64,000 nucleotides of DNA from an uncultured Clostridia bacterium. Lineage in GTDB: Bacteria; Bacillota; Clostridia; Christensenellales; CAG-917. The position numbers and the translations under genes are program-made. The first letter of the stretch is position 1. Each line of letters opens with the position of its first letter. Under the pieces are notes generated by a model. That model had not been told where the DNA came from. It saw nothing but the letters and a program-made list of their open reading frames with translations, and made no database searches. Location of the stretch: assembly GCA_947165815.1 (NCBI GenBank), contig CAMVBZ010000001.1, positions 3,633 to 67,632 of the forward strand, written 5' to 3'. Of the stretch, positions 5,942-37,926 are shown piece by piece.

Positions 5942-5972
5942 ATAAATAAAAACCCTACAATTAAGTAGAGTT
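5942..5972 (-). terminator. Rho-independent terminator closing the T4SS-like operon
   Basis: Minus-strand AACTCTAC-TTAATT-GTAGGGTT followed by TTTATTTAT. An extended -10 (TGGTATAAT, 5932-5940) for the next operon follows. Confidence 0.65.
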
Positions 5973-6010
5973 TTTACTATGCTTAACACAAATTAGTTAT
6001 TTGATATGAC

Positions 6011-9000
6011 TTATTTCTTTAAATCATCCTTGTTGAGTTCTTTGTCTTTTCCAACATTAAGAATATCGCCATTAATCTTAATATCTTCTTCATCATCTAT
6101 ATTGATATAGATTTGTTCGCCATCATCAATCTTCTTGTCTTCCTCAACTTTCTTGTCTTCTGCAATTTTATTGATGTTTTCTTTTTCATCAGCAATATTA
6201 TTGAGTTGATCAATATCAATATCATCAAGATAAATTTCAATTTTCCCCGCTCCACTCTTAATCTGATTCTCAATATTAATAATCTTTTCTCTTGCTATCT
6301 CTGCATCAAGATCGATGTTTATATGACCATTATTATTCTTGATTTGTTCTTCAAGGTTTGGTCTAGAATTAATAATGTTAATATTGTTATCATTAATGAT
6401 GTTGATATTTTCATTAATTTGTGGTTGTTGATTTTGAACAACTTGTTGATGTTGAACTCCACCTTGTGCAGGAATTACACCTTGTTTAATATTATCAATT
6501 CTTTGTGCAAGTTGTTGTTTCTCTGCTTGTGTGAGAATCTTTCTGTCATCGACATATTGATCGTGTTCATCTTTAACAAGACATGTAGTTATTCCTTCAT
6601 CTTTCAAGTACAAATTGCCAAGGAATGCGTTCTTTTTATTCTTGCAACGTTCTATATAACGGTTGTAAAGAATTGTTTTTTCCTCATTAGAAAGTTCATC
6701 TATGCTATCAGCAAACTTGCTGTTAATGTATGCATTCTTAGACATTAGTCTATCAGCCTCAAACATTGAAGGAACTCTATCATTGAATCTCTTTGCATCA
6801 AGTTGAGCATTACGTCTATCAAGATACTCTTCACTAATTCTTCCAGCTTTGAAGTCTTGCATTAATTGTGTCTTACGTTGTGCAATTGCTGCATTCAATG
6901 CATTTCTAGCTTCGGTTAATTGTTGTTGTGCTTGTGCTCTTACTACATCATTATTTGCTCTGTCAAAAGTATTTTGAGCTCTAACCACAGCTGTTTGGAG
7001 ATTCTTGAAATTACGGTTAGCTTGTTCATCTGCTGCTCTTGTTTGTGAACCGAAGTTTTTAACTGCACGAGAATTTACGAAGTCAGTATAACTTCTCTCT
7101 ACAAGATTTTGTTGTAAATCTTCTACGGCATTTTCTACATTAATCTGATAATTTTGTCCATTATAAGTAACTCCACCATTTTGATTCATTTGTGTAAACA
7201 ATCCGCGTAATGTTTCTTTTGGATGGACTACGATGTTGTTTAATGTTCTAAATTGAATGCTTTTTTTATCCATTTCTGGATGAGCAACAATATATTTTAA
7301 TGCTGCTTTTTGTATAGCTGTTCCGGCCATTTCTGGTCTTAAAAGAGAATTATGATTTGCTTGTGCAAGTGCAATTGCTTTTCCGCCTTCTTGAACGATA
7401 CGTCTGATATAAGAATTTGCATCTTCATTAGTCTCAATCAAATATTCCATATCATCAAATTCACGACTTGGCATTACTTGCATTGTATCGTAATTATATG
7501 TTGGAACTTCTAGAACTGACACGTCTTCGAGTGGTTCTTTCATCATGAGTAAACGATCAAAATATGGTTTACCATTGCTAAATACGAAATCACGATGTGA
7601 CATTGTTTCCAACTCAAAGTTATTGGTCATAACAAATGATTGATCAACCGCTGCATTATGCTTAGCCATATTTGGATCAGTTTCTATCTTTGTAATATTT
7701 TCACTTGCACGTGTTAGTAATGAATTTAGTAATCTTTCTGGTTTGGAATATGTTGGTAGAGACAATTCAAACAATGCCTCACCTGCTGATTTCCCTCGAA
7801 CAGCCTTATTTGGATCCAACTTATCAATAGCAGTTTTAGTTTGTCTATCCAAAACAGCACGTGGGTCTGCCAAGAAATCATCATAAGAAATGTTTTGTTG
7901 CTTAAGTGAATGATATATTAAATACAATCCATTAAGTGCAGATGCACCAGCAATATTTTTACGGAATTCAATTGGAAGCCCTTGTGTTCTAACAATATCT
8001 AAGTTAGATGAATAATAACCCTTATCTAAGCCAGCATCATTAATCATTTGCATTAATTCTTTTGATTTATTGTATTCACCAATAAGTCTTTCTGAAGCGT
8101 CTCCAACTTTCATCTTTTCAACTGGGTCATTGCTGCTTAATTTATCTATCAAATCGTTATATGCATAAGCAATACCATGGAATCCATAAACCTTTGTTCC
8201 TTCTTCTGGGGCAAATTCATGTTGATCATATCCAAATTCATCAAATTTTTCGAAGATAGCTTTTACGGATTGCTTTGTTTCATCACGTAATTGAACCTTC
8301 ATATTACGCAATGCATTATATTGGTCTAGCATGTCTGGATTTATTTGATCAAGGTTTCTCTTCTCATTAAATTGGTCAATATAATATGGTGGAGCCTTTA
8401 TAGCGCCAGTGAATTTAAGGTTACCTTTTCCTATTGTATCTCCTACTTGTATTCCATTTTCTGCAAATTCTTCAACAGCTTGTTCCTTACGAAATACATT
8501 CATACCAAAGTCGCCTTCTTCACGGGCAGTACGTACACTTTCTAATTCGCTGACATAACTAGGATCTAAGTTTGCAAAGAGAGCACCAGCTTGATCTATA
8601 TTAGCATTGATTTGATTCTTCCTTTCTTCTGTTAATGGTTGACCATGATAGTAATTCATAGCTCCAATAACTCCCTTAGCGGCATTCATCTCATCTACAA
8701 AGACCTTCACAGTGACTTCTTCATCAGGTCTTTCAAGAATTGGTTTATATGCGTCTGTTCTGTATGCAATATTCTTAAATTCTTCTTCAGGCAAACTATT
8801 TACAACTGCTTCCCAAACGTTATGTTGTCCTTTTTGGGCAATATGTTGATTATATGATAATCTGTTAATATGAACTAATCTTGGATCATTTCTTTCTGCT
8901 TCAGTCATAAATGGTTCTGCCATTTGCTTAACTTGTTCCAAAGTTAAAGTTTGTCTATTTGCTCTTATATTAGCTGCCATCGCTTTGGACTCGTTGGACT

Positions 9001-9439
9001 TTTCTGCTCTATTTAAGATACTTGCATAATCAGTCTTGATGTCATAATCAATTCCATGCTTTCCTTCAGCACCCAATGCATTATATACATTTTGTTTTCC
9101 TTCTGGTGACAATTTCTCCCATGATTCTCTAAAGAAGAACTCCATACGTGCTCTTTCTTTTTTAGCTTCTTCAATGGATTGTCTTCTTTCCTGCCAGTTA
9201 TTACCTACTGGATGTTCGTTCATCAAGTCTGCGTGTGCTTCTGTATCCTTAAGTTTTTGTATATAAGCTGCTTTTGTTATTTGAGTACCTGGCTCAAACC
9301 ACTTTCCTGAGAAATCATGTGGTTGCTCAACTTGTGGTTGAGGCTGTGCTTGAGGTTCCTCTACTCTTGTAGTTACAAATCCGAGTTGTTGAGCATTTTT
9401 TTGAATTGCTCTTTCGTTTTCTCTTAGGAATCTTGGCAT
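6011..9439 (-). CDS. Large soluble protein of unknown function (1142 aa), last gene of the T4SS-like operon; N/I/D/K-rich low-complexity C-terminal tail
   Basis: Uninterrupted ORF with AGGAGAA RBS. No signal peptide or TM segment, and no catalytic motif I recognise. Residues about 866-950 are homologous to residues about 288-367 (longest-ORF numbering from 36470) of the 35136..36431 protein. Confidence 0.75.
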   Translation of the reverse strand: MPRFLRENERAIQKNAQQLGFVTTRVEEPQAQPQPQVEQPHDFSGKWFEPGTQITKAAYIQKLKDTEAHADLMNEHPVGNNWQERRQSIEEAKKERARMEFFFRESWEKLSPEGKQNVYNALGAEGKHGIDYDIKTDYASILNRAEKSNESKAMAANIRANRQTLTLEQVKQMAEPFMTEAERNDPRLVHINRLSYNQHIAQKGQHNVWEAVVNSLPEEEFKNIAYRTDAYKPILERPDEEVTVKVFVDEMNAAKGVIGAMNYYHGQPLTEERKNQINANIDQAGALFANLDPSYVSELESVRTAREEGDFGMNVFRKEQAVEEFAENGIQVGDTIGKGNLKFTGAIKAPPYYIDQFNEKRNLDQINPDMLDQYNALRNMKVQLRDETKQSVKAIFEKFDEFGYDQHEFAPEEGTKVYGFHGIAYAYNDLIDKLSSNDPVEKMKVGDASERLIGEYNKSKELMQMINDAGLDKGYYSSNLDIVRTQGLPIEFRKNIAGASALNGLYLIYHSLKQQNISYDDFLADPRAVLDRQTKTAIDKLDPNKAVRGKSAGEALFELSLPTYSKPERLLNSLLTRASENITKIETDPNMAKHNAAVDQSFVMTNNFELETMSHRDFVFSNGKPYFDRLLMMKEPLEDVSVLEVPTYNYDTMQVMPSREFDDMEYLIETNEDANSYIRRIVQEGGKAIALAQANHNSLLRPEMAGTAIQKAALKYIVAHPEMDKKSIQFRTLNNIVVHPKETLRGLFTQMNQNGGVTYNGQNYQINVENAVEDLQQNLVERSYTDFVNSRAVKNFGSQTRAADEQANRNFKNLQTAVVRAQNTFDRANNDVVRAQAQQQLTEARNALNAAIAQRKTQLMQDFKAGRISEEYLDRRNAQLDAKRFNDRVPSMFEADRLMSKNAYINSKFADSIDELSNEEKTILYNRYIERCKNKKNAFLGNLYLKDEGITTCLVKDEHDQYVDDRKILTQAEKQQLAQRIDNIKQGVIPAQGGVQHQQVVQNQQPQINENINIINDNNINIINSRPNLEEQIKNNNGHINIDLDAEIAREKIINIENQIKSGAGKIEIYLDDIDIDQLNNIADEKENINKIAEDKKVEEDKKIDDGEQIYINIDDEEDIKINGDILNVGKDKELNKDDLKK

Positions 9440-9499: not shown

Positions 9500-12160
9500 T
9501 TATGAAGACTTTTTTTCTTCGAATAATTGTGCAACTTTTGCAGATGCTATGATGTTGATGCTAGTTCTGCTTTGAGGACCTGTGATAATAAATGCACTAC
9601 CACGATTATTATTGATAATTTGATCTTGTTCTGTTGCGTTGATATTACCTGCCTTACTATACAATGTGCACAAGTCATCCATATCGTTTGGAGATAGTGC
9701 AAAAATGAATGAATATTGGCAAGCATTAATAATTGCTGTGGACTTTCTAATAATATCTTGACTACCTACAAAGTCCTTAATATTTTGTGTAATGATAATT
9801 TGCATACCATTATACTTTCTAATACGCTTTGCAAGTTGATACATAAAGTCCAACGCTATTGGGTATTTTGGATCGATAAATACGTGAGCTTCATCGATTG
9901 CTACAATAATTTTTCTATTTGTTTTATATTTTAAGTTAAAATCTCTGTTTTTGATAATTTCATTATCAAGCCATTTTAAAACGAGTAACATTTGCGCATT
10001 TGCAATTACCCCATTTTTATTTGCAAGTAAGCTTTGGAAATTGAATACAGCAAAGTTTTCTTTAACAGAAAGTGTACTTGGACCATTCCATAGATTTGCA
10101 TTTCTGCCTCCTGAAGAGAACTTAGAAATAAAGTTTTTAAGTACTCGGAGATTTTCTACTTCATATGGTACGGTTGCTATTTCTAGTTGTTCCAAAATAA
10201 ATGCATATAAATCATCAAATATTGGATACTCTTCCGCTTTAATTTTAGAGAAATCAGAGTCTGCTGTTATGCCCTTCTTTGCATATAAATCAACAATAAG
10301 GTTGTTTAGCATTTCAAGCGCATGAGCATCAATACCTGGTAATATTTCACGGAAGAATTGCTCTAAGAATTGTAGGTGTACCGAGAAGGAATTACCTGCA
10401 TTCTCTGCGTCTTCATCGGCATCTAATGTTGTAATAACATGGAATGGATTAATTCTACCATGTGTGGCTGTGCCGACATCAATAAGTTTTCCACCGATAT
10501 TCTCTGCCATAATATCATACTCGTTTTCTGGGTCGAGAATGAATATCTTACAGTTTTCGGTAGCTAAGTGTGTCAATAATGTTTTGGTTGAATATGATTT
10601 ACCTGAACCAGATTTACCCATAATAACCATATTTGAATTGACACGTTCATTGTTTCTTGCGAAGAAATCTACGATAACTGGGAATCCTTTACTTTCTCCA
10701 ATTGTAATGCCTCCCTTTTCCATAATTGTGGATAATACAAATGGGAATACTGCTGCAATTGAATTAGAGTGTATTGCACGTTGGAACTCTGTCATAACGT
10801 CAATTTTGGATGGATTCATAGAAATCATCGCACGGCTTTGGTTACAAAAGTTATCTGAAATTTCAAAACCTTGTTCTGCAAGTACACGAAGTACACGCTT
10901 TTTAAGGTCTTTCTTCTTTTCTTTTGTACGATTATAAAGTGTTACGTGAATGTTAACTTTATAAAGATTCTCATTGTCATTCTTTAAAAGCGCAAGTAAT
11001 TGAACTAATGTATTAATGTGTGTTGTTCTATCGATAACGGAACTTGCCTTATAGGATTGATCACTTTGTGAAAGTAGTTCTTGCAAAGATCTATCAATCA
11101 TTTTGACTGCCTTATCTTTGTCATAAGGCTCCATATTCATAACAACCTTTGTATCTTCAATATTAAAGAGTTGATAACCCCAAGCATTACCTACAGCAAG
11201 TGGATAATTACGAATAGTAAAATTGAAGCACTCTTCACCATCAACAAATGTACTCCTAGATGTGAAACTAATTTGTTCAGGCAGTACCCAATTCATATAT
11301 TCTCTTTCGTCTAAGTTCTCGATATCTTCTTCGTTAAACTTATCTGTATAATTGTATTTTAAGAATACGCAGATTTCTTTATCATTTAAGATATGAGATT
11401 TCATACCTGCTTCTGAAAATGTTTCTATTGCATTGGACAAGACTTCATCAATAACACCCTTATCTGCGTCATATACAATAAGATAGAATCCAGGGACCAT
11501 AATTTTGTCGTCACCTGTTGAGTTCAAGTTATTGTAAACTTCTATTCTATCTTGAATAACTTTTTCTCTAACAAATAATTCTTGCTCTGTTAGTTCACCT
11601 GCATCATAAGTTTTCTTAAGGTCTTCTCTCTTAAGTTCTTCCATGGCAATAAAATCGTCTAAACGCATCTTCTTATCTATCTTGATTAAAGATGCACGTG
11701 TCTTGCCAGAAATTGTACGAATAATTTTACCAAAATAGTTGTTTATAATTTGGTCTTGTCTAAATCTAGTAAGTAGTCTGAATTCTCTACAACCGATTTC
11801 AAGTACACCGCCATAGTATCCATCAAACTCCATATAACCATTACGGATGTTTTTAAAAGCAAAGAAACTCTTTATATTGGATGCGCTTTCGACATCTTGA
11901 ACAACAAATTTTTTACCGGAGAATAAATATCTTATGAATGTTTTAAAGAATAGATAGAATCTTTGTCCATCATATGGAATATATAAACCTATTGCTATAC
12001 ACAATATAATTGCTGCAATAAAGAATCTTGCGATGCCTATATTGCTTAAACAAATAACAACTATCAAAACTATAGCTATTAGGGCAATCAATATGTCCGC
12101 AACAGATATGTTTTTGAAAAATGTGACTTTAACTTTCGCTGTTTTTGGTATAACTCTCAT
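9500..12160 (-). CDS. VirB4/TraE-type T4SS ATPase with a fused N-terminal two-TM (VirB3-like) segment
   Basis: Walker A MGKSGSGKSYSTK, Walker B IIVAIDEAHVFID, and the IIITQNIKDF motif. The first roughly 85 aa contain two hydrophobic helices. AAGGAAAG RBS. Confidence 0.8.
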   Translation of the reverse strand: MRVIPKTAKVKVTFFKNISVADILIALIAIVLIVVICLSNIGIARFFIAAIILCIAIGLYIPYDGQRFYLFFKTFIRYLFSGKKFVVQDVESASNIKSFFAFKNIRNGYMEFDGYYGGVLEIGCREFRLLTRFRQDQIINNYFGKIIRTISGKTRASLIKIDKKMRLDDFIAMEELKREDLKKTYDAGELTEQELFVREKVIQDRIEVYNNLNSTGDDKIMVPGFYLIVYDADKGVIDEVLSNAIETFSEAGMKSHILNDKEICVFLKYNYTDKFNEEDIENLDEREYMNWVLPEQISFTSRSTFVDGEECFNFTIRNYPLAVGNAWGYQLFNIEDTKVVMNMEPYDKDKAVKMIDRSLQELLSQSDQSYKASSVIDRTTHINTLVQLLALLKNDNENLYKVNIHVTLYNRTKEKKKDLKKRVLRVLAEQGFEISDNFCNQSRAMISMNPSKIDVMTEFQRAIHSNSIAAVFPFVLSTIMEKGGITIGESKGFPVIVDFFARNNERVNSNMVIMGKSGSGKSYSTKTLLTHLATENCKIFILDPENEYDIMAENIGGKLIDVGTATHGRINPFHVITTLDADEDAENAGNSFSVHLQFLEQFFREILPGIDAHALEMLNNLIVDLYAKKGITADSDFSKIKAEEYPIFDDLYAFILEQLEIATVPYEVENLRVLKNFISKFSSGGRNANLWNGPSTLSVKENFAVFNFQSLLANKNGVIANAQMLLVLKWLDNEIIKNRDFNLKYKTNRKIIVAIDEAHVFIDPKYPIALDFMYQLAKRIRKYNGMQIIITQNIKDFVGSQDIIRKSTAIINACQYSFIFALSPNDMDDLCTLYSKAGNINATEQDQIINNNRGSAFIITGPQSRTSINIIASAKVAQLFEEKKSS

Positions 12161-12182
12161 AGATTATTCTTTCCTTAATATC

Positions 12183-13589
12183 TTAATCTTCGTTTTCTTC
12201 TTCTTCAGATGCTTCTGAAATAGTGTCAAGTCCTCCTGGAGGCGATGGCTCATTAGTGAGTGCTTCGGTAATTTGATTTGCAGTCATTTCATTGAGTTTT
12301 TCTTTGCCGAAGTTGAAGTTGTTTACATCAGCTTCACGTGAGCCTCCACCAGTTGTCTCTCCACCATTTGCATTATTTCCAGGTGTTGAGGTATCATTAT
12401 TCTTCAACTTGTCTTGTACATTGTCAGAATTGCCGTATTTTGGATTTGCGTCAAGACCGTCGCCACTATTTCCATCATCCTTCTTGCTTTCGTCGCCGTT
12501 GCCTTCACCTTTGCTGTCGTCTTTACCTTCAGCTTTACCTCCAGTTTTTCCACCAAACAACTTTTTACCACCTGCCATAACTCCTTTGCCTAGGAGTTTA
12601 AGACCACCCATTGCTGCTGCTGCACCGAGACGACCAAGAGATTGATCCATGAGTTCACGTGAACCAGCTCCAGGTCCAACAAGGTTACCAATGAGAGCAG
12701 ATGATCTTTGCATTGCAAAGCCACCACCAATGATTATTAACAATTTGAAAATGCTGTTTAGGAACGAATTATCAAAGAATATTACGTTGGATGGCATTAT
12801 CAACGATATCAGTAAACAATAAATATTTAGATATAGAATAATTCCATATCCAGATATGAACTTGAGGAGAAGTTGTTCTCTCCATAGCTTGAAACGTCCA
12901 CCATCATCTAATACTGATGAAGCAATTGAGAATGGTGAAACCAAGAACAATACACCAATACTGATAGCACGGTCTACGAATTGAATGAGTGCGGCTGTAA
13001 GGACTAATAAAAGGGAAATACCAGTAATCCAAGAGAAAATAAAGTCAAAGTCTGAAATGTCGATTGCTGATGCAACCAAATCTGTATCAAGATATAAATC
13101 ATATCCAGACATAATTTCATTATAAACAGACTGATTTTCAATTGCATCTTGAGAGAATGCCCCGAATAAGAATGTTCCTAATCCTTGTGAACCATTCAAA
13201 GTTGCTTGATATAATGCATTCATTAATGTATTGAGTGCCCATACAAGTGTTAACATTATTAATGGTACAAAGAAGAACAAAAGTAATGCCTTGAAAGCTT
13301 TCCCGGCTACTTGTGCAGGAGAAATTTCTTGTTTAGATTTCATACATACAAGGATAATCCTAAAAATTGTAAAGAAAACTAAAACAACAAAACCAAGTAT
13401 TGCAGCAATCTTAAAACCATTAGCTAAAGCATCACTTCTCAATAAAAAAGAAATGAGATCAGTTTCAGTCCCACCAATATTAACAGTTTCAATGCCGCAC
13501 AATTTGTTTGTACAAGCTATTAATCCGTCAATTAAACGTAATAAGGATTTTGAAATTCCATATAGAAACTCCCAAAACCAATCAAACAT
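12183..13589 (-). CDS. Polytopic membrane protein, VirB6/TrbL-like by topology and context, with a G/K/D/N-rich disordered C-terminal tail
   Basis: About 6-7 TM helices followed by a roughly 130-aa low-complexity tail. Positioned immediately upstream of the VirB4-like gene. No diagnostic motif, so the assignment is contextual. Confidence 0.45.
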   Translation of the reverse strand: MFDWFWEFLYGISKSLLRLIDGLIACTNKLCGIETVNIGGTETDLISFLLRSDALANGFKIAAILGFVVLVFFTIFRIILVCMKSKQEISPAQVAGKAFKALLLFFFVPLIMLTLVWALNTLMNALYQATLNGSQGLGTFLFGAFSQDAIENQSVYNEIMSGYDLYLDTDLVASAIDISDFDFIFSWITGISLLLVLTAALIQFVDRAISIGVLFLVSPFSIASSVLDDGGRFKLWREQLLLKFISGYGIILYLNIYCLLISLIMPSNVIFFDNSFLNSIFKLLIIIGGGFAMQRSSALIGNLVGPGAGSRELMDQSLGRLGAAAAMGGLKLLGKGVMAGGKKLFGGKTGGKAEGKDDSKGEGNGDESKKDDGNSGDGLDANPKYGNSDNVQDKLKNNDTSTPGNNANGGETTGGGSREADVNNFNFGKEKLNEMTANQITEALTNEPSPPGGLDTISEASEEEENED

Positions 13590-14828: not shown

Positions 14829-14836
14829 CATATTTT

Positions 14837-29507: not shown

Positions 29508-32500
29508 TCGTCATCTCCTCCTTGTTCATAATAGGAAATTATACTATCGTTAGCGATAAGAACATCTTCTTTACTTGCTATATTTAATAATGTATAACAC
29601 CCGTGTTGTACGGTTCCAATTTCATAAGTGTTATCATCCTCATAAACTACTTTTAATTCATAGTCATAAACAGAGAACCAATACACTTCAAATCCTTCTT
29701 CATCTATGAAAGGAGTATATATCAAGAAATCTCCAGATGATCCAATTGCCTTAACCTTTTCTACAGCAATATACTTATTAATTTTGGTGTCAGCCCAACC
29801 AGTGTAGTCATTTTCCTCAAATAAAACACATCTGCCATTAATATATACAGCTTCTCTACTTTCTGGTCCATGACCAGTAAAATCGATTGTATCAAAGGCG
29901 ACATTAATGTTGTTAATCCAAATTGAGATTGTGCCATCTGTATCTACAAACATATATGTCAAAATATTGTCTTTTGCTTTTCTTCTAATAACATATGGTA
30001 AAACATAGATTCCATTTGTTGTATAAATAGCGCCATCATAAATCAAACGATTTTCAACTGTGTCTGTATTTGCACTACGTTCATTATCCATAAATGCATT
30101 TGCCATCATATTAGCATATGTTGTAAGTGTGGCTACATCATCAAATCCTAAAAGATTTGCTATCATTTGACGATACTCATCAACTGTATGATTATTTCCC
30201 GTACCAGCAATTGCAAAGGATTTGTTTAATCCAATGACTGCACTATTGGTCAATAAATATTCACTTGTATATCCAAGATCGTTATTAGCGATGGTGTATA
30301 AATTTCCAGCTTGTTTGAAGAATCTTCTATAGTCAAGATAATTATCATTGCCTTGTCCAATCTCCCAGTAGTTTGCACCATTTTCTTCAATAGAATAATT
30401 AGAGAAGAATGTATGATACAAATCACTTAAGGAATCAAATCTAGCAACAACCTCATCTGCCATAACAGCAATATCGTTTCTATCTATTCTCTTTGTTATA
30501 GAACAATACTCACCATTTGCATATACGATTCCGCCAAGTGGATAACAATCACAAATTAAATAACATGCATTTTCTCTAAATATAGTGTATTCACCATATT
30601 GTTCGTTCTCGTTAGTATCTTTACAACTTACATTTGGATATGTAACCGTAAAAATATTGTGAGAAGCGTTCTGCAAATCCTTTATTAATTCTGCAACCTT
30701 TGAGTCCAAATCTTCTCTCATAATATAACCATCATCTTCAGCCAATAGACATCTGCCATAAATAGTTACCTCGTATTTATCTTCCGAAGATAAGACTGCA
30801 TCGCCAAAATTAGTAGCATTAAATGCATTACGTGCATCATTAATCCATACAGACATATTGCCAACTGTATCAACAAACACTAATGCAAATACCTTTTGTA
30901 AAGACAATTCGGTTCTAATTACGAATGGAAATATGAAATATCCATTTGTCGTATAAACAGCGCCGTCATACATCAAACGTGCTGATACAGATTCAACATT
31001 TGCATTTTTCTTATTTTGAGCAAGTTCTTGTGCCAATGTATTAGTATATGATGTGAATGTGGCTAAATCATTGAATCCAAACAACTTTGCAACTATCATA
31101 CGATATTGGTCTAAAGAATAATCGTTTCCACTATTGTTTATGGAAATAGTGAATGGATTATTCATACCGATAATTACACTTTCACTAAGGACATATTCAT
31201 TATTCTTTCCTAAATTACGACCTGCCAAAGCCATCAAGTTACTTGTAAATTCAAAGAAATCTTTATATAAATTGTAATAACGGTTAGTAACTCCCAATCT
31301 CCACTCATTAACAACATCTTCACCTATTGCATAATTTGAAATAAATAAATTATACAATTCAGTTACATAATCAAGATTTTCAGCAACACCAGCCTCCATT
31401 TGAGGATGTTCATCTCTATCTGTTCTATTTGTTAAACTAATCGAATCTCCATTTGCTTTAATTATTTTTGCAAAAATATCATCATCGCAGAATGTATATG
31501 TTGCTTGATTTGTAGAAATTTGATGTTCTGCCAAATCATATGATTCACTCTCCTCTGCACAATTTCCTGGAAGATTTTCGACAAATCTATATACTGCACG
31601 AGTTCCTTGAGTAAGTTTTTCTGTTGCAGCAGATTCTTCCAAAAATGTAAGATCTTTATCACTTGTTATTACATGTGTAACGTCTGTTCCAGATTCATCA
31701 ACCACTTTAACTATTGGAGATAATCTTGTCAAATAGACTTCACTTGTCAAACAACGTCCTTCCAGTTTAACCTCTTGTTGTGGAGAGTTGAATAAATTAA
31801 ATAATGAATCTACATCACTTATTAAAACGCCCATATCCTTAAAAATTGAAAGAGAGGATTCTGTTCTTTGTAATCTTGCAACGATAAAAATTATTGCTTC
31901 TGATCTTTGATTTCCTTCATTATCAACCCAACTAAAAGTATATGGGAACGCAATTACTGAATCACGCTCACCTTTATCATAAACTCCGCCTTTAACGGCA
32001 CATGTAAGTTGTCCATTAACGTTATTTATGGATGTTCCGGAATTATCTCTCATCATGTTACTACAAAATTCATCAATTTTCTGGACAACTTTACCTTCTC
32101 CAAAGAAATCGCTTGAGTTTTCAAAGCCAAAAATATGTGCTAGCACATCAATATAATCAGAATGTGTATGTTCTTTATGTTTTGATATATATCTCCAATC
32201 TTCTGAATCCTCTAGCAAAACATACGCAGCATTATTCAACTCAAATGTCCAAGGAGTGTCTTCACCAGATGTTGGTCTCAATGCTTCATTTGAAGCATTC
32301 AACAATGATGTAAAAATATCATCATCAACGTCAAGCCAACTTTCTGTACCAACTATATAACGCTTGTACTGAAGTCTAAAATTGCGATACTCCTCTGCAA
32401 GTGTATGGAAATCTTCTCTCTTAGATGGTTGTATATATCCCTGTTCCGAATTGGTTAAAGCAGTTTCTCCTTTCTTATTATATTCATAGAATACATTACA

Positions 32501-34327
32501 ATCACAGAATTGCATTGTAATGCCACCGAATGTGAATTCCTCCAAATTTTCATCACAAGACCCACCTTCATGGAAGTCCATAAATGCGCCTGATGCATTG
32601 CCTGTCTCTGGGTTTACCCAATCATCATCAAAAACCTTTAAATCCCAATTTGTGAAACTATTCACCGTTGATGCACGTATAAGTGTATTAACTTTGGTAA
32701 GCCCAGTATAGTTGCCACTTCCATCGAATTCTATGACAACAACATAGTATCCATCTTCAAGAATCTTTTCTCCGTATCCCTCTCCTTCACCATCAAACGA
32801 AGAAAGATCATCTATCCAACCGTCAACTTTTTTATACTTTACATCTTTGACTTTAAGACCGTCTGGTATATTTTGAGGACGATATTCATTAGCTGCACGA
32901 TATGGATCAAAATAGAATACCTTTAAATGCTTAGCTCTTTCTTCAGCTGATTGTTCTTCTGGATGTTGGAATATATAGTTCCAATATTCTGTAGGGAAAT
33001 CATCTTTGATACTTCTTTGAGAAATGAAACGACGGCGTTCAAAAGTAATCATATCCATTTTGGCTGGAACTGGGTCAATAATAATCGTTGCAGTCATAGA
33101 AGCAGGATTCTTAAAGTTTGGATTATTACTTTCAAAAGATGCTATCGCTACATAAGTCCCTGCATTTTTTGCTACATTGCCACTATAGGACACTGATAAT
33201 CCCATAGGCAAAGTTCCTTCTATCTCTATAGTCTTTTCTGTACCATCATAAGAAGTCTTTGTTCCATTAAATTGAACACCCGACATATCATACTCTGCTT
33301 TTTCAATTGTTAAAGTTGCATACATATTTGGAATTGGTTCATAATTGACTATATCATCTATATCAAATTTAGCTGTTGCATTATATACGCCCACGTCCAC
33401 GTGTTCATTATTAATATAAGTAACAGAAACTCCTAAAGGAAGATTACCTTCAAGTTCAATCTTTTGAACAGTACGATCATACTGAACCCATTTGCTATCA
33501 AAACTTAAATCTGAGACATCTATCTCTGCTTGCTTTATTCTAAGAGTTGCAATCTTTGGTTCAACTACATTATAGTTGACATTATCACCAGAGAATGATG
33601 CTTGTATTGTATATATTCCTGCATTTTTAGCAGAGTTTCCTTGTTCTTCTCTGCCTCCAAATTTTGTTATTGTATAATCTACATATAATCCAGTAGGCAA
33701 AGTTCCATCAATGGATATCTCGTGTATGTCACCATCATAGACTTCTTCTTTATTTTCAAAGTTGATATGTGATAAATCATAAGTTGCTTTTCTAATAACT
33801 ACATTTGCAGTCATTTCCTTCATCTCATAAGCATCTTTTCTTAAAATTGCAGTTGCTTGATATGTTCCTGCTGTACGGAAACGATTTGTTGTAGGATATG
33901 TTACTGTTGTGCCTTCTGGAACATTCTTTACCTCTACTGTATGGAATTCTCCATCATATACAATGTCTACGTCATTAAATTCTGCTCCAGCAAAAACATT
34001 TCTTCTAACATTTACATTAATTGTTGTTGTCTTGTCTTTAAAGTAAACAGTTAATACGTGTTCGCCTTCTTGGAATAATAAAATACGGTCTTTTGCCTCT
34101 AACATATCTGCACTTAATGTAGATTGTTCTGTTTTGCCTGAGTCGAATGTTGCTGTAACGGTATAGTCTGAGTAATTGAACTCACCCATTCTTACATCTA
34201 TAGTATCGGGAGTGACACTTATTTCTTTTACATTATCGATATTACATGCGAATAGCACTACGCATGTTAGTACAAATGTTGCCAACAACATGGCATATAA
34301 TAGTATTTTCTTTCCTTTTTTAATCAT
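29498..34327 (-). CDS. Large surface lipoprotein (1609 aa) with four MBG-like repeats and three Cys-containing ~300-aa repeats
   Basis: Lipobox LFAC. Four units with the YDG...AG(T/I)Y signature (VYDGEFHTVEV...RTAGTYQA; VYDGDIHEISI...KNAGIYTI; QYDRTVQKIEL...DVGVYNA; SYDGTEKTIEI...KNAGTYVA). Three C-terminal units each end in GRC(L/V). Confidence 0.8.
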   Translation of the reverse strand: MIKKGKKILLYAMLLATFVLTCVVLFACNIDNVKEISVTPDTIDVRMGEFNYSDYTVTATFDSGKTEQSTLSADMLEAKDRILLFQEGEHVLTVYFKDKTTTINVNVRRNVFAGAEFNDVDIVYDGEFHTVEVKNVPEGTTVTYPTTNRFRTAGTYQATAILRKDAYEMKEMTANVVIRKATYDLSHINFENKEEVYDGDIHEISIDGTLPTGLYVDYTITKFGGREEQGNSAKNAGIYTIQASFSGDNVNYNVVEPKIATLRIKQAEIDVSDLSFDSKWVQYDRTVQKIELEGNLPLGVSVTYINNEHVDVGVYNATAKFDIDDIVNYEPIPNMYATLTIEKAEYDMSGVQFNGTKTSYDGTEKTIEIEGTLPMGLSVSYSGNVAKNAGTYVAIASFESNNPNFKNPASMTATIIIDPVPAKMDMITFERRRFISQRSIKDDFPTEYWNYIFQHPEEQSAEERAKHLKVFYFDPYRAANEYRPQNIPDGLKVKDVKYKKVDGWIDDLSSFDGEGEGYGEKILEDGYYVVVIEFDGSGNYTGLTKVNTLIRASTVNSFTNWDLKVFDDDWVNPETGNASGAFMDFHEGGSCDENLEEFTFGGITMQFCDCNVFYEYNKKGETALTNSEQGYIQPSKREDFHTLAEEYRNFRLQYKRYIVGTESWLDVDDDIFTSLLNASNEALRPTSGEDTPWTFELNNAAYVLLEDSEDWRYISKHKEHTHSDYIDVLAHIFGFENSSDFFGEGKVVQKIDEFCSNMMRDNSGTSINNVNGQLTCAVKGGVYDKGERDSVIAFPYTFSWVDNEGNQRSEAIIFIVARLQRTESSLSIFKDMGVLISDVDSLFNLFNSPQQEVKLEGRCLTSEVYLTRLSPIVKVVDESGTDVTHVITSDKDLTFLEESAATEKLTQGTRAVYRFVENLPGNCAEESESYDLAEHQISTNQATYTFCDDDIFAKIIKANGDSISLTNRTDRDEHPQMEAGVAENLDYVTELYNLFISNYAIGEDVVNEWRLGVTNRYYNLYKDFFEFTSNLMALAGRNLGKNNEYVLSESVIIGMNNPFTISINNSGNDYSLDQYRMIVAKLFGFNDLATFTSYTNTLAQELAQNKKNANVESVSARLMYDGAVYTTNGYFIFPFVIRTELSLQKVFALVFVDTVGNMSVWINDARNAFNATNFGDAVLSSEDKYEVTIYGRCLLAEDDGYIMREDLDSKVAELIKDLQNASHNIFTVTYPNVSCKDTNENEQYGEYTIFRENACYLICDCYPLGGIVYANGEYCSITKRIDRNDIAVMADEVVARFDSLSDLYHTFFSNYSIEENGANYWEIGQGNDNYLDYRRFFKQAGNLYTIANNDLGYTSEYLLTNSAVIGLNKSFAIAGTGNNHTVDEYRQMIANLLGFDDVATLTTYANMMANAFMDNERSANTDTVENRLIYDGAIYTTNGIYVLPYVIRRKAKDNILTYMFVDTDGTISIWINNINVAFDTIDFTGHGPESREAVYINGRCVLFEENDYTGWADTKINKYIAVEKVKAIGSSGDFLIYTPFIDEEGFEVYWFSVYDYELKVVYEDDNTYEIGTVQHGCYTLLNIASKEDVLIANDSIISYYEQGGDDEWH
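29828..32542 (-). repeat. Three tandem ~300-330-aa protein repeat units in the 1609-aa lipoprotein
   Basis: Units 2 and 3 align clearly: IIGMNNPFTISINNSGNDYSLDQYRMIVAKLFGFNDLATFTSYTNTLA / VIGLNKSFAIAGTGNNHTVDEYRQMIANLLGFDDVATLTTYANMMA, and RLMYDGAVYTTNGYFIFPFVIR / RLIYDGAIYTTNGIYVLPYVIR. Unit 1 is more diverged. Each unit has an FCDC/FCDDD/ICDC patch and ends at GRC (aa 857-859, 1191-1193, 1498-1500). Confidence 0.7.
33077..34006 (-). repeat. Four tandem MBG-like domain repeats (aa about 108-417)
   Basis: Period of about 75-80 aa with conserved YDG, G(T/N)LP.G and AG.Y positions. Confidence 0.7.
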
Positions 34328-34344: not shown

Positions 34345-35139
34345 TTACATTCTATATTTTTTTGGCCCAGTCAAATCTGACCATGAGGCATAATTTGTCA
34401 TATATGCGCCCTGGTAGGCGTTAATTGCTTTTATATCACCATTAAGGTAGTCATAATAATCACAATCAATTTTTTTAGGATCTATTGCATATGCATTATG
34501 AGATTTGATGATAATATCTGAACCACCTATTGCATTCAAAGTCTTAACAAGCGTTGAGAATGCTTGAGATAAATATTGATCACCACCAACACCTACATCA
34601 TCAAAAATGTAAGCAATTATCTCAGAACGGCTACATGCAGCTCCCTTTTTGTCTATTAAATAAGCAAGTAATTCTTTTGCTTTTGCTCTTGGGAAATGAA
34701 CAGGCATTCCATCACAGAAAAACTCGAAGTTTCCAAATGTTTGAGCATAGAACTTTTTGCCCTTTCCCATATCTTTTTCTGGATAAAGAAGATTATCAAA
34801 TTGTTCACGAAGTTGGTTTTCATCAACTGGTTTTAGCAAGTAACCACTTGCATGCAATCTAATAGCATCCATCATATATTCGGAGTACCCTGTTACAAAC
34901 ACTATGTTTGTATGTGGATAAATAACCTTAACTCTATGAGCAAATTGTATGCCTGTCATATCATACATTCTAACATCACTAAAAATGATATCTGGTTTCA
35001 TTGCACCACTTTCCAAAGATTGAAGAGCCATTATAGGATCATGGAATAGATAAAGGTCCGCATCTGGCTTAACCTTCTTAATGCAATCTGCCAATGAATT
35101 TAATGCTAATGTCTCATCATCAACTGCTAAGATAATCAT
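34345..35139 (-). CDS. Two-component response regulator: REC domain plus SARP/OmpR-like winged-helix output
   Basis: REC motifs MIILAVDDE, IIFSDVRMYDMTG, IVFVTGY. C-terminal FGNFEFFCDGMPVHFPRAKAKELLAYLIDKKGAACSRSEIIAYIF is typical of wHTH (SARP/OmpR-like) DNA-binding domains. ATGA overlap with the upstream gene. Confidence 0.8.
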   Translation of the reverse strand: MIILAVDDETLALNSLADCIKKVKPDADLYLFHDPIMALQSLESGAMKPDIIFSDVRMYDMTGIQFAHRVKVIYPHTNIVFVTGYSEYMMDAIRLHASGYLLKPVDENQLREQFDNLLYPEKDMGKGKKFYAQTFGNFEFFCDGMPVHFPRAKAKELLAYLIDKKGAACSRSEIIAYIFDDVGVGGDQYLSQAFSTLVKTLNAIGGSDIIIKSHNAYAIDPKKIDCDYYDYLNGDIKAINAYQGAYMTNYASWSDLTGPKKYRM

Positions 35140-36431
35140 TTTTTCAAACTCCTTATATAGAGTTCATCTTGTACTGGTTGTACTTGACGCATTGTCATAC
35201 CAATATAATCTTCTCCTATTTCATCTATATCTACACTAATACGACTTACTTTATCACTATTTTCTATTCCATCTTCATCATATTGTTTCTTTCCTGTTGC
35301 AAGACCACGATAGAAAATTTCTCTATTGAGTGCCATTTCGGAAAGAAGATATCTGCTGGAATTGGCAAGTCCTTTTTTTGTTAAGAACTGTTTTGTGAGA
35401 TATATATTCTTGTCTTTTTGTGCTTTTTTAAGTGCAAGATTACAAATAGCATCCGCTTCATCCTTACTTAAATCTTGTAAATCATGATCTTTGAGGTATT
35501 GCTCTCTATTTTTAATATCATCTTCCTCAAACATCTCTGGGACTCTCTTGTAATCACGTTTTATTAATTGTTCATTGCGTGTTTTATAATAGTATTCACT
35601 TATTACACCTTCTCTAAAAGCATCTTGTATTGCACTACCTCTTGCATAAGTTGCCTTTAAAAGAACATTCTCTGCTCTAAGTTTCTTGTTTTCTATTTCC
35701 TCACGTTCTTTTCCTGAAACAAAACCTAATCTTACATCCAACTCATGAATATCTTTTAGAAGTTTTTGAGCATCTTTATTGAAACTTTCATCCTCGTTGC
35801 GAATAGCAGACCACTTATCTGATACATGAGGTTTACGAAGATACTCATGACAATCCAAATCTATTGAAGATAAGTCTTCTTCAAAATGTATTTCACTAAA
35901 TGCATCTTGCTTTCTATCGTTTGCAATTAAAGTTGCTTGTACGAAAGCTTCAGGTTGCTTAACGAACCACTCTGCTTGTCCATTGTCACTTGAATTTGTG
36001 TTTGAATCTGACAATAAAAGAACTTGAGCTGTTTGGCAATGAAGCATTTTTAAAACTGCCTTAGACAAGTCGTCATTATGTAATTCTGTAGTTTCTGTTG
36101 CATCTTCAACTGTTGAGATTTCATCAAGGTCTAAAATACACTCTTTCACATTTTTAATGTGATTCTTAGATAAAACGTTATTTTTTACGATTAATTCTAA
36201 CTCATCAAAAGGAAGATCATCATCACCTTCATGATATAAAGAAAGAGCGCCCATTTGCTTTGAATTAAGCAACATCATACGCTCTAAATTATTCAATTCT
36301 TTTGTTATACGTACTCTAACGGTATCACGTCTTAATTTCTCTGTAAAAGATCCTTCAGACATATTTTGAGATGCTTGGTTTCCACCAATTTCATCCCAGA
36401 TTTTTTGGTATAAATCTTTTAAAACTCCCAT
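35136..36431 (-). CDS. Soluble protein of unknown function (431 aa from the corrected start), co-transcribed with the response regulator
   Basis: I moved the start to ATG 36431 (MGVLKDLYQ) because GGAGAG lies 7 nt upstream, and the longest-ORF start at 36470 falls inside the conserved promoter element. Shares a roughly 80-aa module with the 1142-aa protein. Confidence 0.6.
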   Translation of the reverse strand: MGVLKDLYQKIWDEIGGNQASQNMSEGSFTEKLRRDTVRVRITKELNNLERMMLLNSKQMGALSLYHEGDDDLPFDELELIVKNNVLSKNHIKNVKECILDLDEISTVEDATETTELHNDDLSKAVLKMLHCQTAQVLLLSDSNTNSSDNGQAEWFVKQPEAFVQATLIANDRKQDAFSEIHFEEDLSSIDLDCHEYLRKPHVSDKWSAIRNEDESFNKDAQKLLKDIHELDVRLGFVSGKEREEIENKKLRAENVLLKATYARGSAIQDAFREGVISEYYYKTRNEQLIKRDYKRVPEMFEEDDIKNREQYLKDHDLQDLSKDEADAICNLALKKAQKDKNIYLTKQFLTKKGLANSSRYLLSEMALNREIFYRGLATGKKQYDEDGIENSDKVSRISVDIDEIGEDYIGMTMRQVQPVQDELYIRSLKK

Positions 36432-36467: not shown

Positions 36468-36503
36468 CATTGTAACACACGAAATATTACAAATTTATTA
36501 CAA
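36468..36503 (-). promoter_or_regulatory. Conserved promoter/operator element, copy 2 (upstream of the unknown protein, response regulator, lipoprotein, T4CP and giant sub-operon)
   Basis: Minus-strand TTGTAATAAATTTGTAATATTTCGTGTGTTACAATG, 35/36 identical to 14793..14828. A third TTGTAATAA and a TATAAT box follow before the GGAGAG RBS. Confidence 0.65.
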
Positions 36504-36537
36504 AAGCATTTTTAAAGTTTTAGTGTTTGAAATTATT

Positions 36538-37833
36538 TTATTCTGAAATTGGGAAACGAATAGTGGCCGTTGTACCATAACCTATTTTACTTTCTATTTC
36601 AAGTTTTCCATTAACCATTGTTTCAACACGGTTTCTAACATTTTCAATACCAATATGGGTAGAATCTCTTGGTTCATTAACCTCAAATCCTACACCATTA
36701 TCTATTATTCTAATGACTATGTCATTATCCTCACGTCTTGTTGCAATCTTAATTGTACCACCTTCACGCTTAACAGATATACCATGTTTAACTGCATTTT
36801 CTGCCAATATTTGGACACTCATAGCAGGAAGATCAAAATCTTTTTCTTGTATATCGTATTCAACTTGCAAACTCTTTCCAAAACGTATTTTTTCAAGTCT
36901 TAAATAAACTTGTACATTCTCAAATTCTTGTTCAAAAGAAATGAGAGTGTTTTCATTAATTGTATTTAGTGTCTGACGAAGATATTTAGCAAAGTCCCCT
37001 ATTGCTTTCTTTGTTTTATCTGGGTTGTCTGGAAGAGCTTGTATAGCCGTTAGTGCATTGTAAATAAAATGTGGAGAAACTTGACTTCTAAATAGTCTCT
37101 CTCTTGTTTTTTCTGTTTCTAATTTTGCTTCCTCTTTTGCGATTCTTTCTTTCAAAAGTATGTCAGTTGCTTTTGATTGTTCTCCAAACAAAAGAACTAC
37201 AATTGACATAATAGTTATAGCATCCACAAAGAACAACTGTGGAATAAGACATTGTAAAATTAAGCCAATTAGAAGCAATGAAAAATAGATATAGAAAGTA
37301 ACCATATCTTGTTTGCACAAACTTTTTCTATTAATAACAACCAATGCTGCAATTGCTAACCATAATACTAATTCAACAACTGGAATTAGGTAGAAGGCGA
37401 TGCCACGAACATAGTGATTATTTGCGTTTACAGAATATAAATATCCTGCAAATAGATTTCCTACAAGCAGTGCAAGCACGACCCCTTGTATAGCAAAAAC
37501 AATAATGGTCCAAACCTTATAAAACTTTGAGTCACTTTTAATTAAATGAATCAAATAAAGGTTGAGGAATGCTATGCATAAACAACCTGCCATTATTCCT
37601 ATAAACCTTGAGGCTATAATCATCGCTCTAGAAGATTCTAACCCCATATCGTTAAATACATTAAACAATCCGTTAAAGAGAGCAGAAACGCCCAATGATG
37701 CCATAATAAATGCTAAATCACGTTTTTCTTGTTTGCTAACGTGAGGGAAAGTGAGCATACAAATAGAACCAGCAATTGCTAATAACAATGCAACAACCTC
37801 AAAAGAGATGTTTATTGTGGCATATACCCCCAT
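36538..37833 (-). CDS. Sensor histidine kinase, LytS/YehU type (His_kinase PF06580-like plus HATPase_c), six-TM sensor
   Basis: H-box region FRSQVSPHFIYNALTAI. N-box ILAENAVKHGI. G-boxes IIDNGVGF and GIENVRNRV...GYGTTATIRFP. GGAGGG RBS. Confidence 0.85.
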   Translation of the reverse strand: MGVYATINISFEVVALLLAIAGSICMLTFPHVSKQEKRDLAFIMASLGVSALFNGLFNVFNDMGLESSRAMIIASRFIGIMAGCLCIAFLNLYLIHLIKSDSKFYKVWTIIVFAIQGVVLALLVGNLFAGYLYSVNANNHYVRGIAFYLIPVVELVLWLAIAALVVINRKSLCKQDMVTFYIYFSLLLIGLILQCLIPQLFFVDAITIMSIVVLLFGEQSKATDILLKERIAKEEAKLETEKTRERLFRSQVSPHFIYNALTAIQALPDNPDKTKKAIGDFAKYLRQTLNTINENTLISFEQEFENVQVYLRLEKIRFGKSLQVEYDIQEKDFDLPAMSVQILAENAVKHGISVKREGGTIKIATRREDNDIVIRIIDNGVGFEVNEPRDSTHIGIENVRNRVETMVNGKLEIESKIGYGTTATIRFPISE

Positions 37834-37895
37834 GTCAGACCCTCCACTCTAAATAAATATGCTTTAGTATATCATATCTTTTTTTATATTACCAT

Positions 37896-37926
37896 AAAAA
37901 AAACGAACCCTCTAAAAGAGTTCGTA
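37896..37926 (-). terminator. Rho-independent terminator after tRNA-Val
   Basis: Minus-strand ACGAACTCT-TTT-AGAGGGTTCGT imperfect hairpin followed by T8. Confidence 0.6.

Follow-up and report, generated by a model that had tools for sequence, protein, structure and literature searches.

Whether Gram-positive bacteria possess dedicated effector translocators, i.e., non-conjugative type IV secretion systems (T4SSs), is a long-standing open question (PMC12857230). A locus that bears on it lies in a stretch of 64,000 nucleotides (nt) from an uncultured Clostridia bacterium (contig CAMVBZ010000001.1 of assembly GCA_947165815.1, positions 3,633 to 67,632; hereafter the window, in whose own numbering the coordinates are given). 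Here, a block of eleven genes combines T4SS parts with very large surface proteins and a sensor kinase-response regulator pair. What is such a block for, if not for its own transfer? We read it as an exapted, contact-dependent chromosomal T4SS under two-component regulation that is not self-transmissible; the function is judged from the genes and their conservation, and we hold this reading with modest confidence, placing it a little past the even point. The best explanation of the comparisons below would be that the block lost, or never had, the functions for self-transmission, and serves its host and not its own spread. Together with a sister clade in cultured gut Clostridia, the block represents a concrete and widespread candidate for a non-conjugative Gram-positive T4SS, of which hardly any are known. 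Because candidates for the regulator site and for the substrate family come with it, and because hosts of the sister clade can be cultivated, the question becomes testable.

The block carries a minimal T4SS core without recognisable DNA-processing genes

All eleven open reading frames (ORFs; 11/11) were confirmed as co-directional on the minus strand, from 37833 to 6011, with lengths of 431, 444, 264, 1609, 836, 4052, 99, 289, 468, 886 and 1142 amino acids (aa). This agrees with an earlier reading made from the letters of the window (the sequence-only reading), which had described a co-directional run from the kinase gene to a terminator; that intrinsic terminator (5942–5982, minus strand) ends the block with a predicted folding energy of –18.2 kcal/mol (z = –5.3), followed by a U-run. 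The same reading had put all gaps at 76 nt or less. This holds for the ORFs as called mechanically, and fails for the gap between the first and second genes, which measures ~106 nt from the more probable start of the second gene.

The coupling protein, the ATPase, a VirB6-like protein and a pilin-like protein had been recognised by their motifs and topology, and profile searches upheld each assignment. The VirD4/TraG-type coupling protein (836 aa; 26997–29507, minus strand) has N-terminal transmembrane (TM) segments, overlaps the gene upstream by 10 nt, and matches T4SS-DNA_transf (PF02534, 5.7e-49), TrwB_AAD_bind (PF10412) and TraG-D_C (PF12696) as well as the NCBIfam model NF045973 ‘CD1115 family’ (298 bits, cutoff 250). 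The VirB4 ATPase (886 aa; 9500–12160, minus strand) matches PF19044 (2.6e-20), NF045971 (161.7 bits) and, marginally below the cutoff of 590 bits, NF045975 ‘Mbov_0397 family ICE ATPase’ (563 bits); it starts with two TM helices, i.e., a VirB3-like fusion. The exact VirB4 protein had no record on database look-up. The polytopic VirB6-like protein (468 aa; 12183–13589, minus strand) ends in a disordered G/S/D/E-rich tail and scores above the cutoffs of both NF045848 (148 bits, cutoff 90) and NF045889 ‘Mbov_0396’ (127 bits, cutoff 70). The two-TM VirB2/pilin-like protein (99 aa; 14461–14760, minus strand) is encoded by a single gene and not by an array; it matches PF18895 (3e-10, 40.5 bits, cutoff 26.6) and falls marginally below the cutoff of NF045849 ‘Mbov_0395’ (39.2 bits, cutoff 40). 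Between the pilin-like and VirB6-like genes lies that of a 289-aa lipoprotein (13602–14471, minus strand; lipobox LSGC), which matched no Pfam or NCBIfam family and nothing in the PDB. Judged by these families, the core, consisting of VirD4, the two-TM VirB2/pilin-like protein, the VirB6-like channel protein and the VirB3-VirB4 fusion ATPase, is a minimal monoderm T4SS of the type found in the integrative and conjugative elements (ICEs) of Mollicutes (Mbov_0395/0396/0397). The lipoprotein, the two giant surface proteins and the cytoplasmic proteins of an orphan module would be lineage-specific additions to it.

The functions that had been noted as missing from the block were also missing in profile searches. 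At E ≤ 0.01, the eleven block proteins gave no match to a relaxase, recombinase, transposase, single-stranded DNA-binding protein (SSB), primase or cell-wall hydrolase family, and no match to a VirB1 or VirB8 family; the other ORFs of the window gave no relaxase, recombinase, ssb, primase or VirB1 domain. Tyrosine, serine and DDE recombinase families were found neither in the block nor in the window ORFs, in keeping with the earlier statement that a DDE recombinase is absent. Housekeeping genes make up the remainder of the window, among them msrA, hpt, typA, those for a Bmp-type ABC transporter, a P-type ATPase and HU, and thiamine genes. In practice, pipelines for ICE detection will score loci of this kind as ‘partial ICEs’.

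A likeness to the conjugation module of the Mollicutes ICEs (MICE; ICEA of M. agalactiae and ICEB of M. bovis) had been proposed and is supported by Mbov_0397, Mbov_0396 and Mbov_0395 as the best curated families for these proteins, of which Mbov_0396/MMCAP2_0566 is matched above cutoff and the other two marginally below. The MICE module comprises CDS5/VirD4, CDS13/15, CDS16/VirB6-like, CDS17/VirB4 and the surface lipoprotein CDS14 (PMC12857230, PMC6030558). Like the block, it is a minimal core with a surface lipoprotein, without a detected VirB1- or VirB8-like part and without a recognisable relaxase (PMC12857230, PMC6030558). MICE nevertheless possess a DDE (CDS22) recombinase, a ParA-like CDSG and further backbone, all of which the block lacks: no Pfam or NCBIfam match to the MICE backbone (Mutator-like DDE CDS22, CDS1, CDSG, CDS19) was found among the block proteins. 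The block, on the other hand, has a VirD4 of the clostridial CD1115 family, a Clostridia host with the standard genetic code, its own two-component system, two giant surface proteins, an orphan all-alpha protein and an ameliorated chromosomal composition.

According to the sequence-only reading, att-type repeats at the borders would make the block an ordinary ICE; we found none. A tRNA-Val(GAC) gene (37930–38006, minus strand; own terminator at 37903–37925), which that reading had overlooked, adjoins the kinase end of the block and was considered as an integration site. It was rejected: the 3' end of the tRNA has no second copy anywhere in the 64-kb window with ≤3 mismatches allowed, the block borders have no word of ≥12 nt in common, and no tRNA lies beside the block at the borders of related loci (0/10). 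The adjacency is therefore taken as coincidental. A window-wide repeat search revealed no direct or inverted repeats flanking the block, and its GC content (33.6%) lies between those of the flanks (32.2% and 35.0%). We found no evidence that the block is an island with borders. The adjoining tRNA gene would suit the alternative that the block is an ordinary ICE with a novel, unrecognisable relaxase and/or recombinase, as would the precedent of MICE, in which a relaxase has likewise gone unrecognised (PMC6030558). Against this alternative are the lack of an att repeat or tRNA fragment, the tRNA-free borders of the ten relatives, and GC content, overall and at third codon positions (GC3), that is fully ameliorated to each host; the proteins that might be its enzymes are taken up below.

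The block appears to be an old resident of clostridial chromosomes

More than 100 cluster representatives of VirB4 were found, with 63–100% identity and 877–886 aa, in metagenomes and metagenome-assembled genomes labelled ‘Clostridia bacterium’, ‘Clostridiales RUG’, ‘Acholeplasmatales (rumen)’ and ‘Candidatus Coproplasma’. The last of these is GTDB genus UBA11940 (Christensenellales/Borkfalkiaceae), with genomes of 1.4–1.7 Mb (PMC8035907). The order of the upstream half (kinase, 444-aa protein, regulator, giant, VirD4, giant) is kept in five related loci (L087, L089, L090, L092, L095), and that of the downstream half (giant, pilin, lipoprotein, VirB6, VirB4, 1142-aa-like protein) in L001/L081, L002, L005, L011, L163 and L164. 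By gene order, then, the block is found again as a complete unit in many uncultured rumen and gut Clostridia. Evolutionary rates within it are very uneven: between relatives, identity is 87–96% for the pilin-like protein, 83–88% for VirB4 and 76–86% for VirD4, and falls to 40–69% for the giants, 40–58% for the lipoprotein, 39–60% for the kinase and 23–39% for the 1142-aa protein.

The composition of the block follows the local flanks in each genome, with GC contents from 33.6% in the window to 56.3% in L095, and GC3 of VirB4 is 26% here versus 57–70% in close relatives. Compared with its homologue in L081, VirB4 is 85% identical in amino acids, and the third positions within identical residues are only 43.8% alike, from which we conclude that synonymous sites are saturated under strong purifying selection on the protein. 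This saturation, together with the ameliorated composition, rules out, in our reading, a recent transfer as well as a decaying remnant. An ICE remnant on its way to loss would explain why relaxase and integrase are absent, but none of the eleven genes is disrupted, not even the ORFs of 12.2 kb and 4.8 kb, the order is intact in many species, VirB4 is held at 85% identity over saturated synonymous sites, and a regulatory motif is conserved, so that we give decay next to no credence. Among the plasmids of PLSDB, no VirB4 exceeded ~31% identity, the best being those of Spiroplasma plasmids annotated as Mbov_0397 family, and this VirB4 clade therefore appears to be chromosomal. These comparisons suggest that the block is an old, selected chromosomal resident whose function has been under long selection.

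A conserved operator/promoter supports two-component control of the block

The sequence-only reading had the block headed by its own sensor kinase and response regulator and expressed under signal control; the domain matches and a conserved cis-element agree with this. The histidine kinase (431 aa; 36538–37833, minus strand) has ~6–7 N-terminal TM segments followed by His_kinase (PF06580, 6.4e-19) and HATPase_c (5.2e-11) domains; its gene has its own upstream region after the tRNA-Val terminator and stands at the head of the block, at 39–60% identity, in L087, L089, L090, L092 and L095. The response regulator (264 aa; 34345–35139, minus strand; overlapping the preceding gene by 4 nt) carries a receiver domain (PF00072, 5.4e-18) and is 71–76% identical in relatives. 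Its C-terminal domain resembles Trans_reg_C (PF00486) at 0.0027 and 18.2 bits, below the cutoff of 26.2.

Only one repeat stands out in the window: a direct repeat of 60 nt (family D2), whose copies are 83% identical and occupy the two longest intergenic gaps of the block, before the 444-aa gene and before the pilin-like gene. Its core reads TTGTAATA-N3-TTGTAATA, with an 11-bp period, and is followed by an extended –10 element (TGtTACAAT); neither copy has an acceptable –35 box. In the first operator/promoter (P1; 36469–36503, minus strand) the repeats lie at 36503–36496 and 36492–36485 and the –10 element at 36477–36469. In the second (P2; 14794–14828, minus strand), located in the 76-nt gap before the pilin-like gene, the repeats span 14828–14810 and the –10 element ends at 14794. 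The exact 19-mer of the operator occurs in the window only at P1 and P2. A degenerate form, TGTMATANNTTTGTAAYA, is present exactly once per locus in 11 related loci from other genomes, always (11/11) on the coding strand of the orthologous intergenic site, and in 0/154 of the other loci; five relatives have it upstream of the orthologue of the 444-aa gene, and L001, L002, L011, L081, L163 and L164 have one copy each upstream of the pilin gene.

For winged-helix response regulators, tandem repeats that have the period of a helical turn and reach across the –35 position are a typical arrangement. We therefore read the element, from its layout, as a putative activator-dependent promoter used twice. 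With the Trans_reg_C match only sub-threshold, an OmpR/SARP-type pairing of this regulator with this site is a putative one; the conservation of the element nonetheless supports two-component control of the block. The second repeat and the –10 box can also pair into a hairpin, which was considered as an RNA structure and rejected: at P1 its energy was not better than that of shuffled sequences, for which reason the element is taken as a DNA site.

The promoter also bears on the start of the gene behind it, which encodes the 444-aa protein (unk444). The mechanically called ATG (36470) lies inside the –10 box, whereas the M14 codon (36431) has a GGAGAG ribosome-binding site ahead of it. Translation probably starts at M14, giving a protein of 431 aa (35136–36431, minus strand), and the kinase-to-unk444 gap of ~106 nt would thus contain the promoter. 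With the dual promoter, the block is predicted to comprise at least three transcription units: the kinase alone; unk444, the regulator, the 1609-aa giant, VirD4 and the 4052-aa giant; and the pilin-like protein, lipoprotein, VirB6, VirB4 and the 1142-aa protein.

A third copy of TTGTAATA (36467–36460, minus strand) lies just downstream of the –10 element of P1 and is lacking at the pilin promoter. It could be a candidate for an extra regulator site, e.g., for autoregulation or repression.

Two giant surface proteins accompany the core

Three large proteins had been described as the giant surface proteins around which the block is built. This description fits the 1609-aa and 4052-aa proteins, and does not fit the 1142-aa protein, which is predicted to be all-alpha and cytoplasmic. 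The first, giant1609, is a lipoprotein (lipobox LFAC; 29498–34327, minus strand) without a confident domain, a weak match to MBG_3 aside; it is found at the same position in relatives with 40–48% identity. The second, giant4052 (14837–26995, minus strand), has an N-terminal signal/anchor, a C-terminal TM segment and an RKRKKV tail. It bears no LPXTG motif, has no Pfam or PDB match, and is 52–69% identical in relatives. No internal repeats were found by BLAST in either giant. A model of the C-terminal 1100 aa of giant4052 is beta-rich, at a predicted local distance difference test (pLDDT) score of 38.9, i.e., very low confidence, and for that reason was not taken to a fold search.

The end of giant4052 is more informative. 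Its last 130–210 aa, made up of a terminal beta-domain followed by the TM helix and the basic tail, share homology with the C-termini of 520–865-aa proteins of the sister clade (E 1e-5 to 2e-8, in a small database). These homologues have a signal peptide and a C-terminal TM segment and are encoded, like giant4052, directly after VirD4. The same C-terminus is also homologous to that of a protein of 2132+ aa in L006. The C-terminal homology and the same position together suggest that giant4052 is a roughly five- to eightfold expansion of an accessory surface subunit and not cargo. Thus, the earlier idea of a core dedicated to the 4052-aa giant is better restated: giant4052 is, on this homology, an enlarged and conserved accessory surface subunit of its T4SS family. 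The block also illustrates how several-thousand-residue proteins can become the centre of a remodelled conjugation core.

The prominence of these proteins raises the alternative that the block is an apparatus for adhesion or pilus display only, with the VirB2-like filament and/or the giants serving attachment or biofilm formation and no dedicated substrate. The extreme conservation of the pilin-like protein would agree with this, as would the co-regulation of the two giants with the core, and T4SS-dependent roles in biofilm and adhesion are known (PMC12491478). However, each giant bears its own signal peptide or lipobox and should therefore use Sec and need no T4SS, and a complete VirD4 substrate receptor has been kept, with 62–99% identity across relatives; we regard a purely adhesive apparatus as improbable. 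VirD4 is dispensable for pilus biogenesis in model systems (see also the title of PMC13463995), which also counts against an adhesion-only role.

A predicted all-alpha orphan module lies behind VirB4

The 1142-aa protein (unk1142; 6011–9439, minus strand) is encoded directly after VirB4. It has neither a signal peptide nor a TM segment and is predicted to be all-alpha, and for these reasons we do not count it as a surface protein. It consists of one ~900-aa unit of an orphan module and a highly charged low-complexity tail, and its relatives contain 2–3 tandem units (2029–2947 aa) that are only 23–39% identical between genomes with 85% identical VirB4. An exhaustive HMMER scan of 1.84 billion representatives yielded only 115 relatives, 47 of which contained no Pfam domain. 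The profile of the family matched only designed helical repeats in the PDB. The AlphaFold2 (AF2) model is all-alpha with a pLDDT of 55.6, a low confidence that makes it usable for secondary structure only; Foldseek against the PDB returned nothing at E < 0.001 and no relaxase-like fold. Word-indexed homologue searches with unk1142 and with the C-terminus of giant4052 gave 3 matches each because low-complexity words swamped the candidate list, and the alignments for structure prediction were consequently shallow. Searching the PDB by sequence or profile with unk1142, with unk444, with either giant or with the lipoprotein gave nothing meaningful.

The module is also represented in unk444, which has no TM segment and no Pfam, NCBIfam or PDB match. 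A subdomain of ~170 aa is paralogous to residues 784–952 of unk1142 (BLASTP, 30% identity, E 1e-9), which form the C-terminal subdomain of the module. Orthologues of unk444 at the same position are 40–62% identical.

As cytoplasmic, unassigned proteins inside the block, unk1142 and unk444 are the candidates for the missing enzymes if the block were the ordinary ICE considered above. The predicted all-alpha structure of the unk1142 family is, however, at odds with the alpha/beta folds of HUH, Rep_trans, tyrosine, serine and DDE enzymes, and nothing in the modelled structure suggests one of these folds. Moreover, multiplication of the unit from one to three copies and divergence to 23–39% identity are unlike an enzyme. 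Taken with the borders, we judge an ICE with unrecognisable enzymes to be quite improbable.

In L165 (8787–25799), a distant member of the module family (P0123, 1932 aa) has two more giant ORFs (2984 aa and >1690 aa) as neighbours, along with genes for STAS and EAL proteins. T4SS genes are absent up to 10 kb away from P0123, and the module is therefore not strictly T4SS-linked at long range.

A model for the block and the points that weigh against it

In the model that we favour, that of a domesticated and regulated T4SS, the polytopic membrane kinase would sense an envelope or contact signal and would phosphorylate, and so activate, the response regulator. The regulator would bind the tandem TTGTAATA repeats, which would stand in for the –35 box, and the bound regulator would switch on two operons, i.e., unk444-regulator-giant1609-VirD4-giant4052 and pilin-lipoprotein-VirB6-VirB4-unk1142. 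Since the gene for the regulator lies inside the first operon, the response would be self-amplifying (positive feedback). The giants and lipoproteins, exported by Sec, would make contact with another cell or surface, and the channel powered by VirD4 and VirB4 would move a substrate across the envelope. The most likely candidate for that substrate would be unk1142, all-alpha, without signal peptide and rapidly diversifying, because it has neither signal peptide nor TM segment, always follows VirB4 directly, comes in versions of 1 to 3 units and has diverged to 23–39% identity. DNA without a cognate relaxase is the less likely substrate. The paralogue unk444 was considered as an adaptor or regulator.

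A more specific form of this model is a tentative one, and we put it forward as possible though doubtful: in a lineage of uncultured gut and rumen Clostridia, the T4SS would be a signal-switched host organelle for cell contact, in which the giants and the VirB2-like filament touch another cell and VirD4/VirB4 inject or exchange very large modular all-alpha proteins. If true, this would be a dedicated effector-translocating T4SS in Bacillota, possibly linked to an epibiotic lifestyle, with a simpler sister system in the cultivable Hungatella and Enterocloster.

Several points weigh against the domesticated T4SS. The winged-helix DNA-binding domain of the regulator is sub-threshold, and the confidence of the models is low for both unk1142 (pLDDT 55.6) and the giant4052 C-terminus (38.9). 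The identity of the substrate is a matter of deduction throughout. The flanks of the block vary among relatives (a guaA-like gene, TetR/FecCD, McrBC, Lactamase_B/rubredoxin), which would fit past mobility, but also genome rearrangement. The genome may have a relaxase gene outside these 64 kb, and VirD4 proteins of the CD1115 family are normally paired with PF03432 relaxases (PMC12084326).

One relative has a relaxase and a recombinase beside the block, which likewise tells against domestication. L083 (66% VirB4 identity) has, at 17943–21769 on the opposite strand and ~5 kb downstream of VirB4, genes for a serine recombinase (Resolvase/Recombinase/Zn_ribbon), for a PF03432 relaxase and for a MobC/NikA-like protein. 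From its gene content this module looks like an integrative mobilisable element (IME) parked beside the T4SS block, of which it may be a client. In tBLASTn searches of 165 loci, the L083 relaxase, MobC and serine recombinase found only L083 itself and one serine recombinase in L050, which is a weak test as relaxases diverge fast.

These last observations lead to the rival that the sequence-only reading had already set beside domestication, namely a non-autonomous conjugation module; in the form weighed here, it would be a mating pore resident in the chromosome, with DNA processing supplied in trans by IME relaxases or with relaxase-independent chromosomal transfer of the MICE kind. The full-length VirD4 speaks for it, since this family pairs with PF03432 relaxases in Tn1549-type ICEs (PMC12084326), and so does the IME-like module of L083. 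The core is also nearest to that of MICE, which mediate chromosomal transfer without an identified relaxase (PMC6030558, PMC12857230), and the surface lipoprotein and giant adhesin match the contact role of CDS14 or PrgB. Against it, relaxases are absent from the block and its immediate neighbourhood, both in the window and in the other relatives examined, it is hard to see why hosts of 33.6–56.3% GC would strongly select a 32-kb helper, and a mating pore gives no role to the conserved, fast-evolving cytoplasmic protein after VirB4. The comparative data favour domestication over an ordinary or decaying ICE, and the mating-pore module is left as a rather unlikely reading that still deserves some weight.

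A sister clade in cultured Clostridia and other systems compared

The domesticated T4SS would have simpler relatives. A sister clade, with VirB4 ~50% and VirD4 ~55–60% identical, occurs in Lachnospiraceae and Oscillospiraceae, including the cultured strains Hungatella effluvii DSM 24995, Enterocloster lavalensis KCTC 15153 and Lachnospiraceae 45-P1. Its loci include L039 (H. effluvii, NZ_QJKD01000003.1 34048–56747), L067 (E. lavalensis), L040 and ~60 more in L006–L080, and their order is VirD4, anchored surface protein, two VirB6-like genes, VirB4, SBP_bac_3 lipoprotein and pilin. In H. effluvii, the cluster opens with a GHKL sensor kinase; next come a cNMP-SpoIIE-HATPase protein, a STAS protein and an Rce1-like protease, and neither a relaxase nor an integrase was found there. 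Like the block, the clade has a protein with signal peptide and C-terminal TM segment after VirD4, and sensory or regulatory genes nearby, with sensor kinase and SpoIIE/STAS partner-switching genes recurring among them. It differs in having no giants (except for the 2132+ aa protein of L006), no unk1142 module and a duplicated VirB6, in the recurrence of the SBP_bac_3 lipoprotein and the Rce1-like CPBP protease, and in having other regulators.

Among 133 neighbouring ORFs of 20 sister-clade loci, the recurrent families were Rce1-like (15), SBP_bac_3 (13) and choline-binding repeats, and the single matches were housekeeping. The 25 families listed contained no relaxase or recombinase, a result that excludes only a recurrent or strong match. 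Within 10 kb of the clusters, neither a relaxase nor an integrase was seen to recur, and housekeeping genes form the flanks. This sister clade of chromosomal clusters appears to be undescribed. The literature search found no described system with the arrangement of the block and no description of the VirB4 clade, so the earlier statement that the block could not be assigned to a described system holds.

By sequence, the block is closest to MICE; by logic, it is closest to the T4SS of Patescibacteria, whose chromosomal, relaxase-less form would be its functional analogue. The T4SSs of Patescibacteria/Saccharibacteria are, like the block, chromosomal, conserved in their lineage, of monoderm type and relaxase-less, with a PF18895 pilin (PMC12102498; for Southlakia epibionticum, PMC12857230), and an exaptation for a non-conjugative, cell-contact function has been proposed for them (PMC12102498, PMC12857230). 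Among monoderms, PF18895 VirB2-like pilins have been described only from Patescibacteria and not otherwise from Gram-positive T4SSs (PMC12857230). Patescibacterial loci differ in their VirB1-like and VirB8-like genes and arrays of several pilins, and PrgB-type adhesins were not detected in them (PMC12102498); the block differs in its phylum, its one pilin-like gene, its giants and its dedicated kinase/regulator pair. The best VirB4 family of the block is of Mollicutes type and no VirB1 or VirB8 match was found; we do not count the block as a member of the patescibacterial clade.

Very large anchored proteins that accompany a T4SS and are thought to mediate contact are known from PrgB of pCF10 and the giants of the ‘Hodor’ conjugative megaplasmids (PMC12934698). 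These belong to relaxase-bearing plasmids, however, and no sequence homology to the block's giants was detected. The block, in turn, shows no LPXTG/sortase anchoring, using a TM or lipid anchor instead, and its giant lies between VirD4 and the pilin gene. A loose precedent for a T4SS-linked giant is VirB6-4 of Anaplasma, with 4322 aa (PMC7648143); no homology to the block was detected and the architecture differs. The 89K T4SS of Streptococcus suis is Gram-positive as well, and export of a protein (SspA-1) has been proposed for it (PMC12857230). It differs from the block in being a transferable island of another T4SS type, with VirB1 and VirB8 present and no giants (PMC3132442, PMC12857230).

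Neighbouring genes

A small two-TM protein with a bPH_2 (bacterial PH-domain) match is encoded directly after the block terminator (5425–5907, minus strand). Directly after VirB4, L006 has a gene (12092–12613) for a membrane protein that resembles it in size and apparent topology. The presence of the bPH_2 gene at the end of the block may be a coincidence, or the gene may be a loosely linked accessory. Beyond it and msrA, four consecutive ORFs without a Pfam match (18–4850; 300, 448, 441 and 376 aa, two per strand) are found, which lie next to the block in no relative. On the other side of the block, the ATPase of the Bmp-type nucleoside ABC transporter (40539–42620, minus strand) looks long for its kind at 693 aa; its first ABC_tran match is stretched over residues 59–278, which suggests an insertion.

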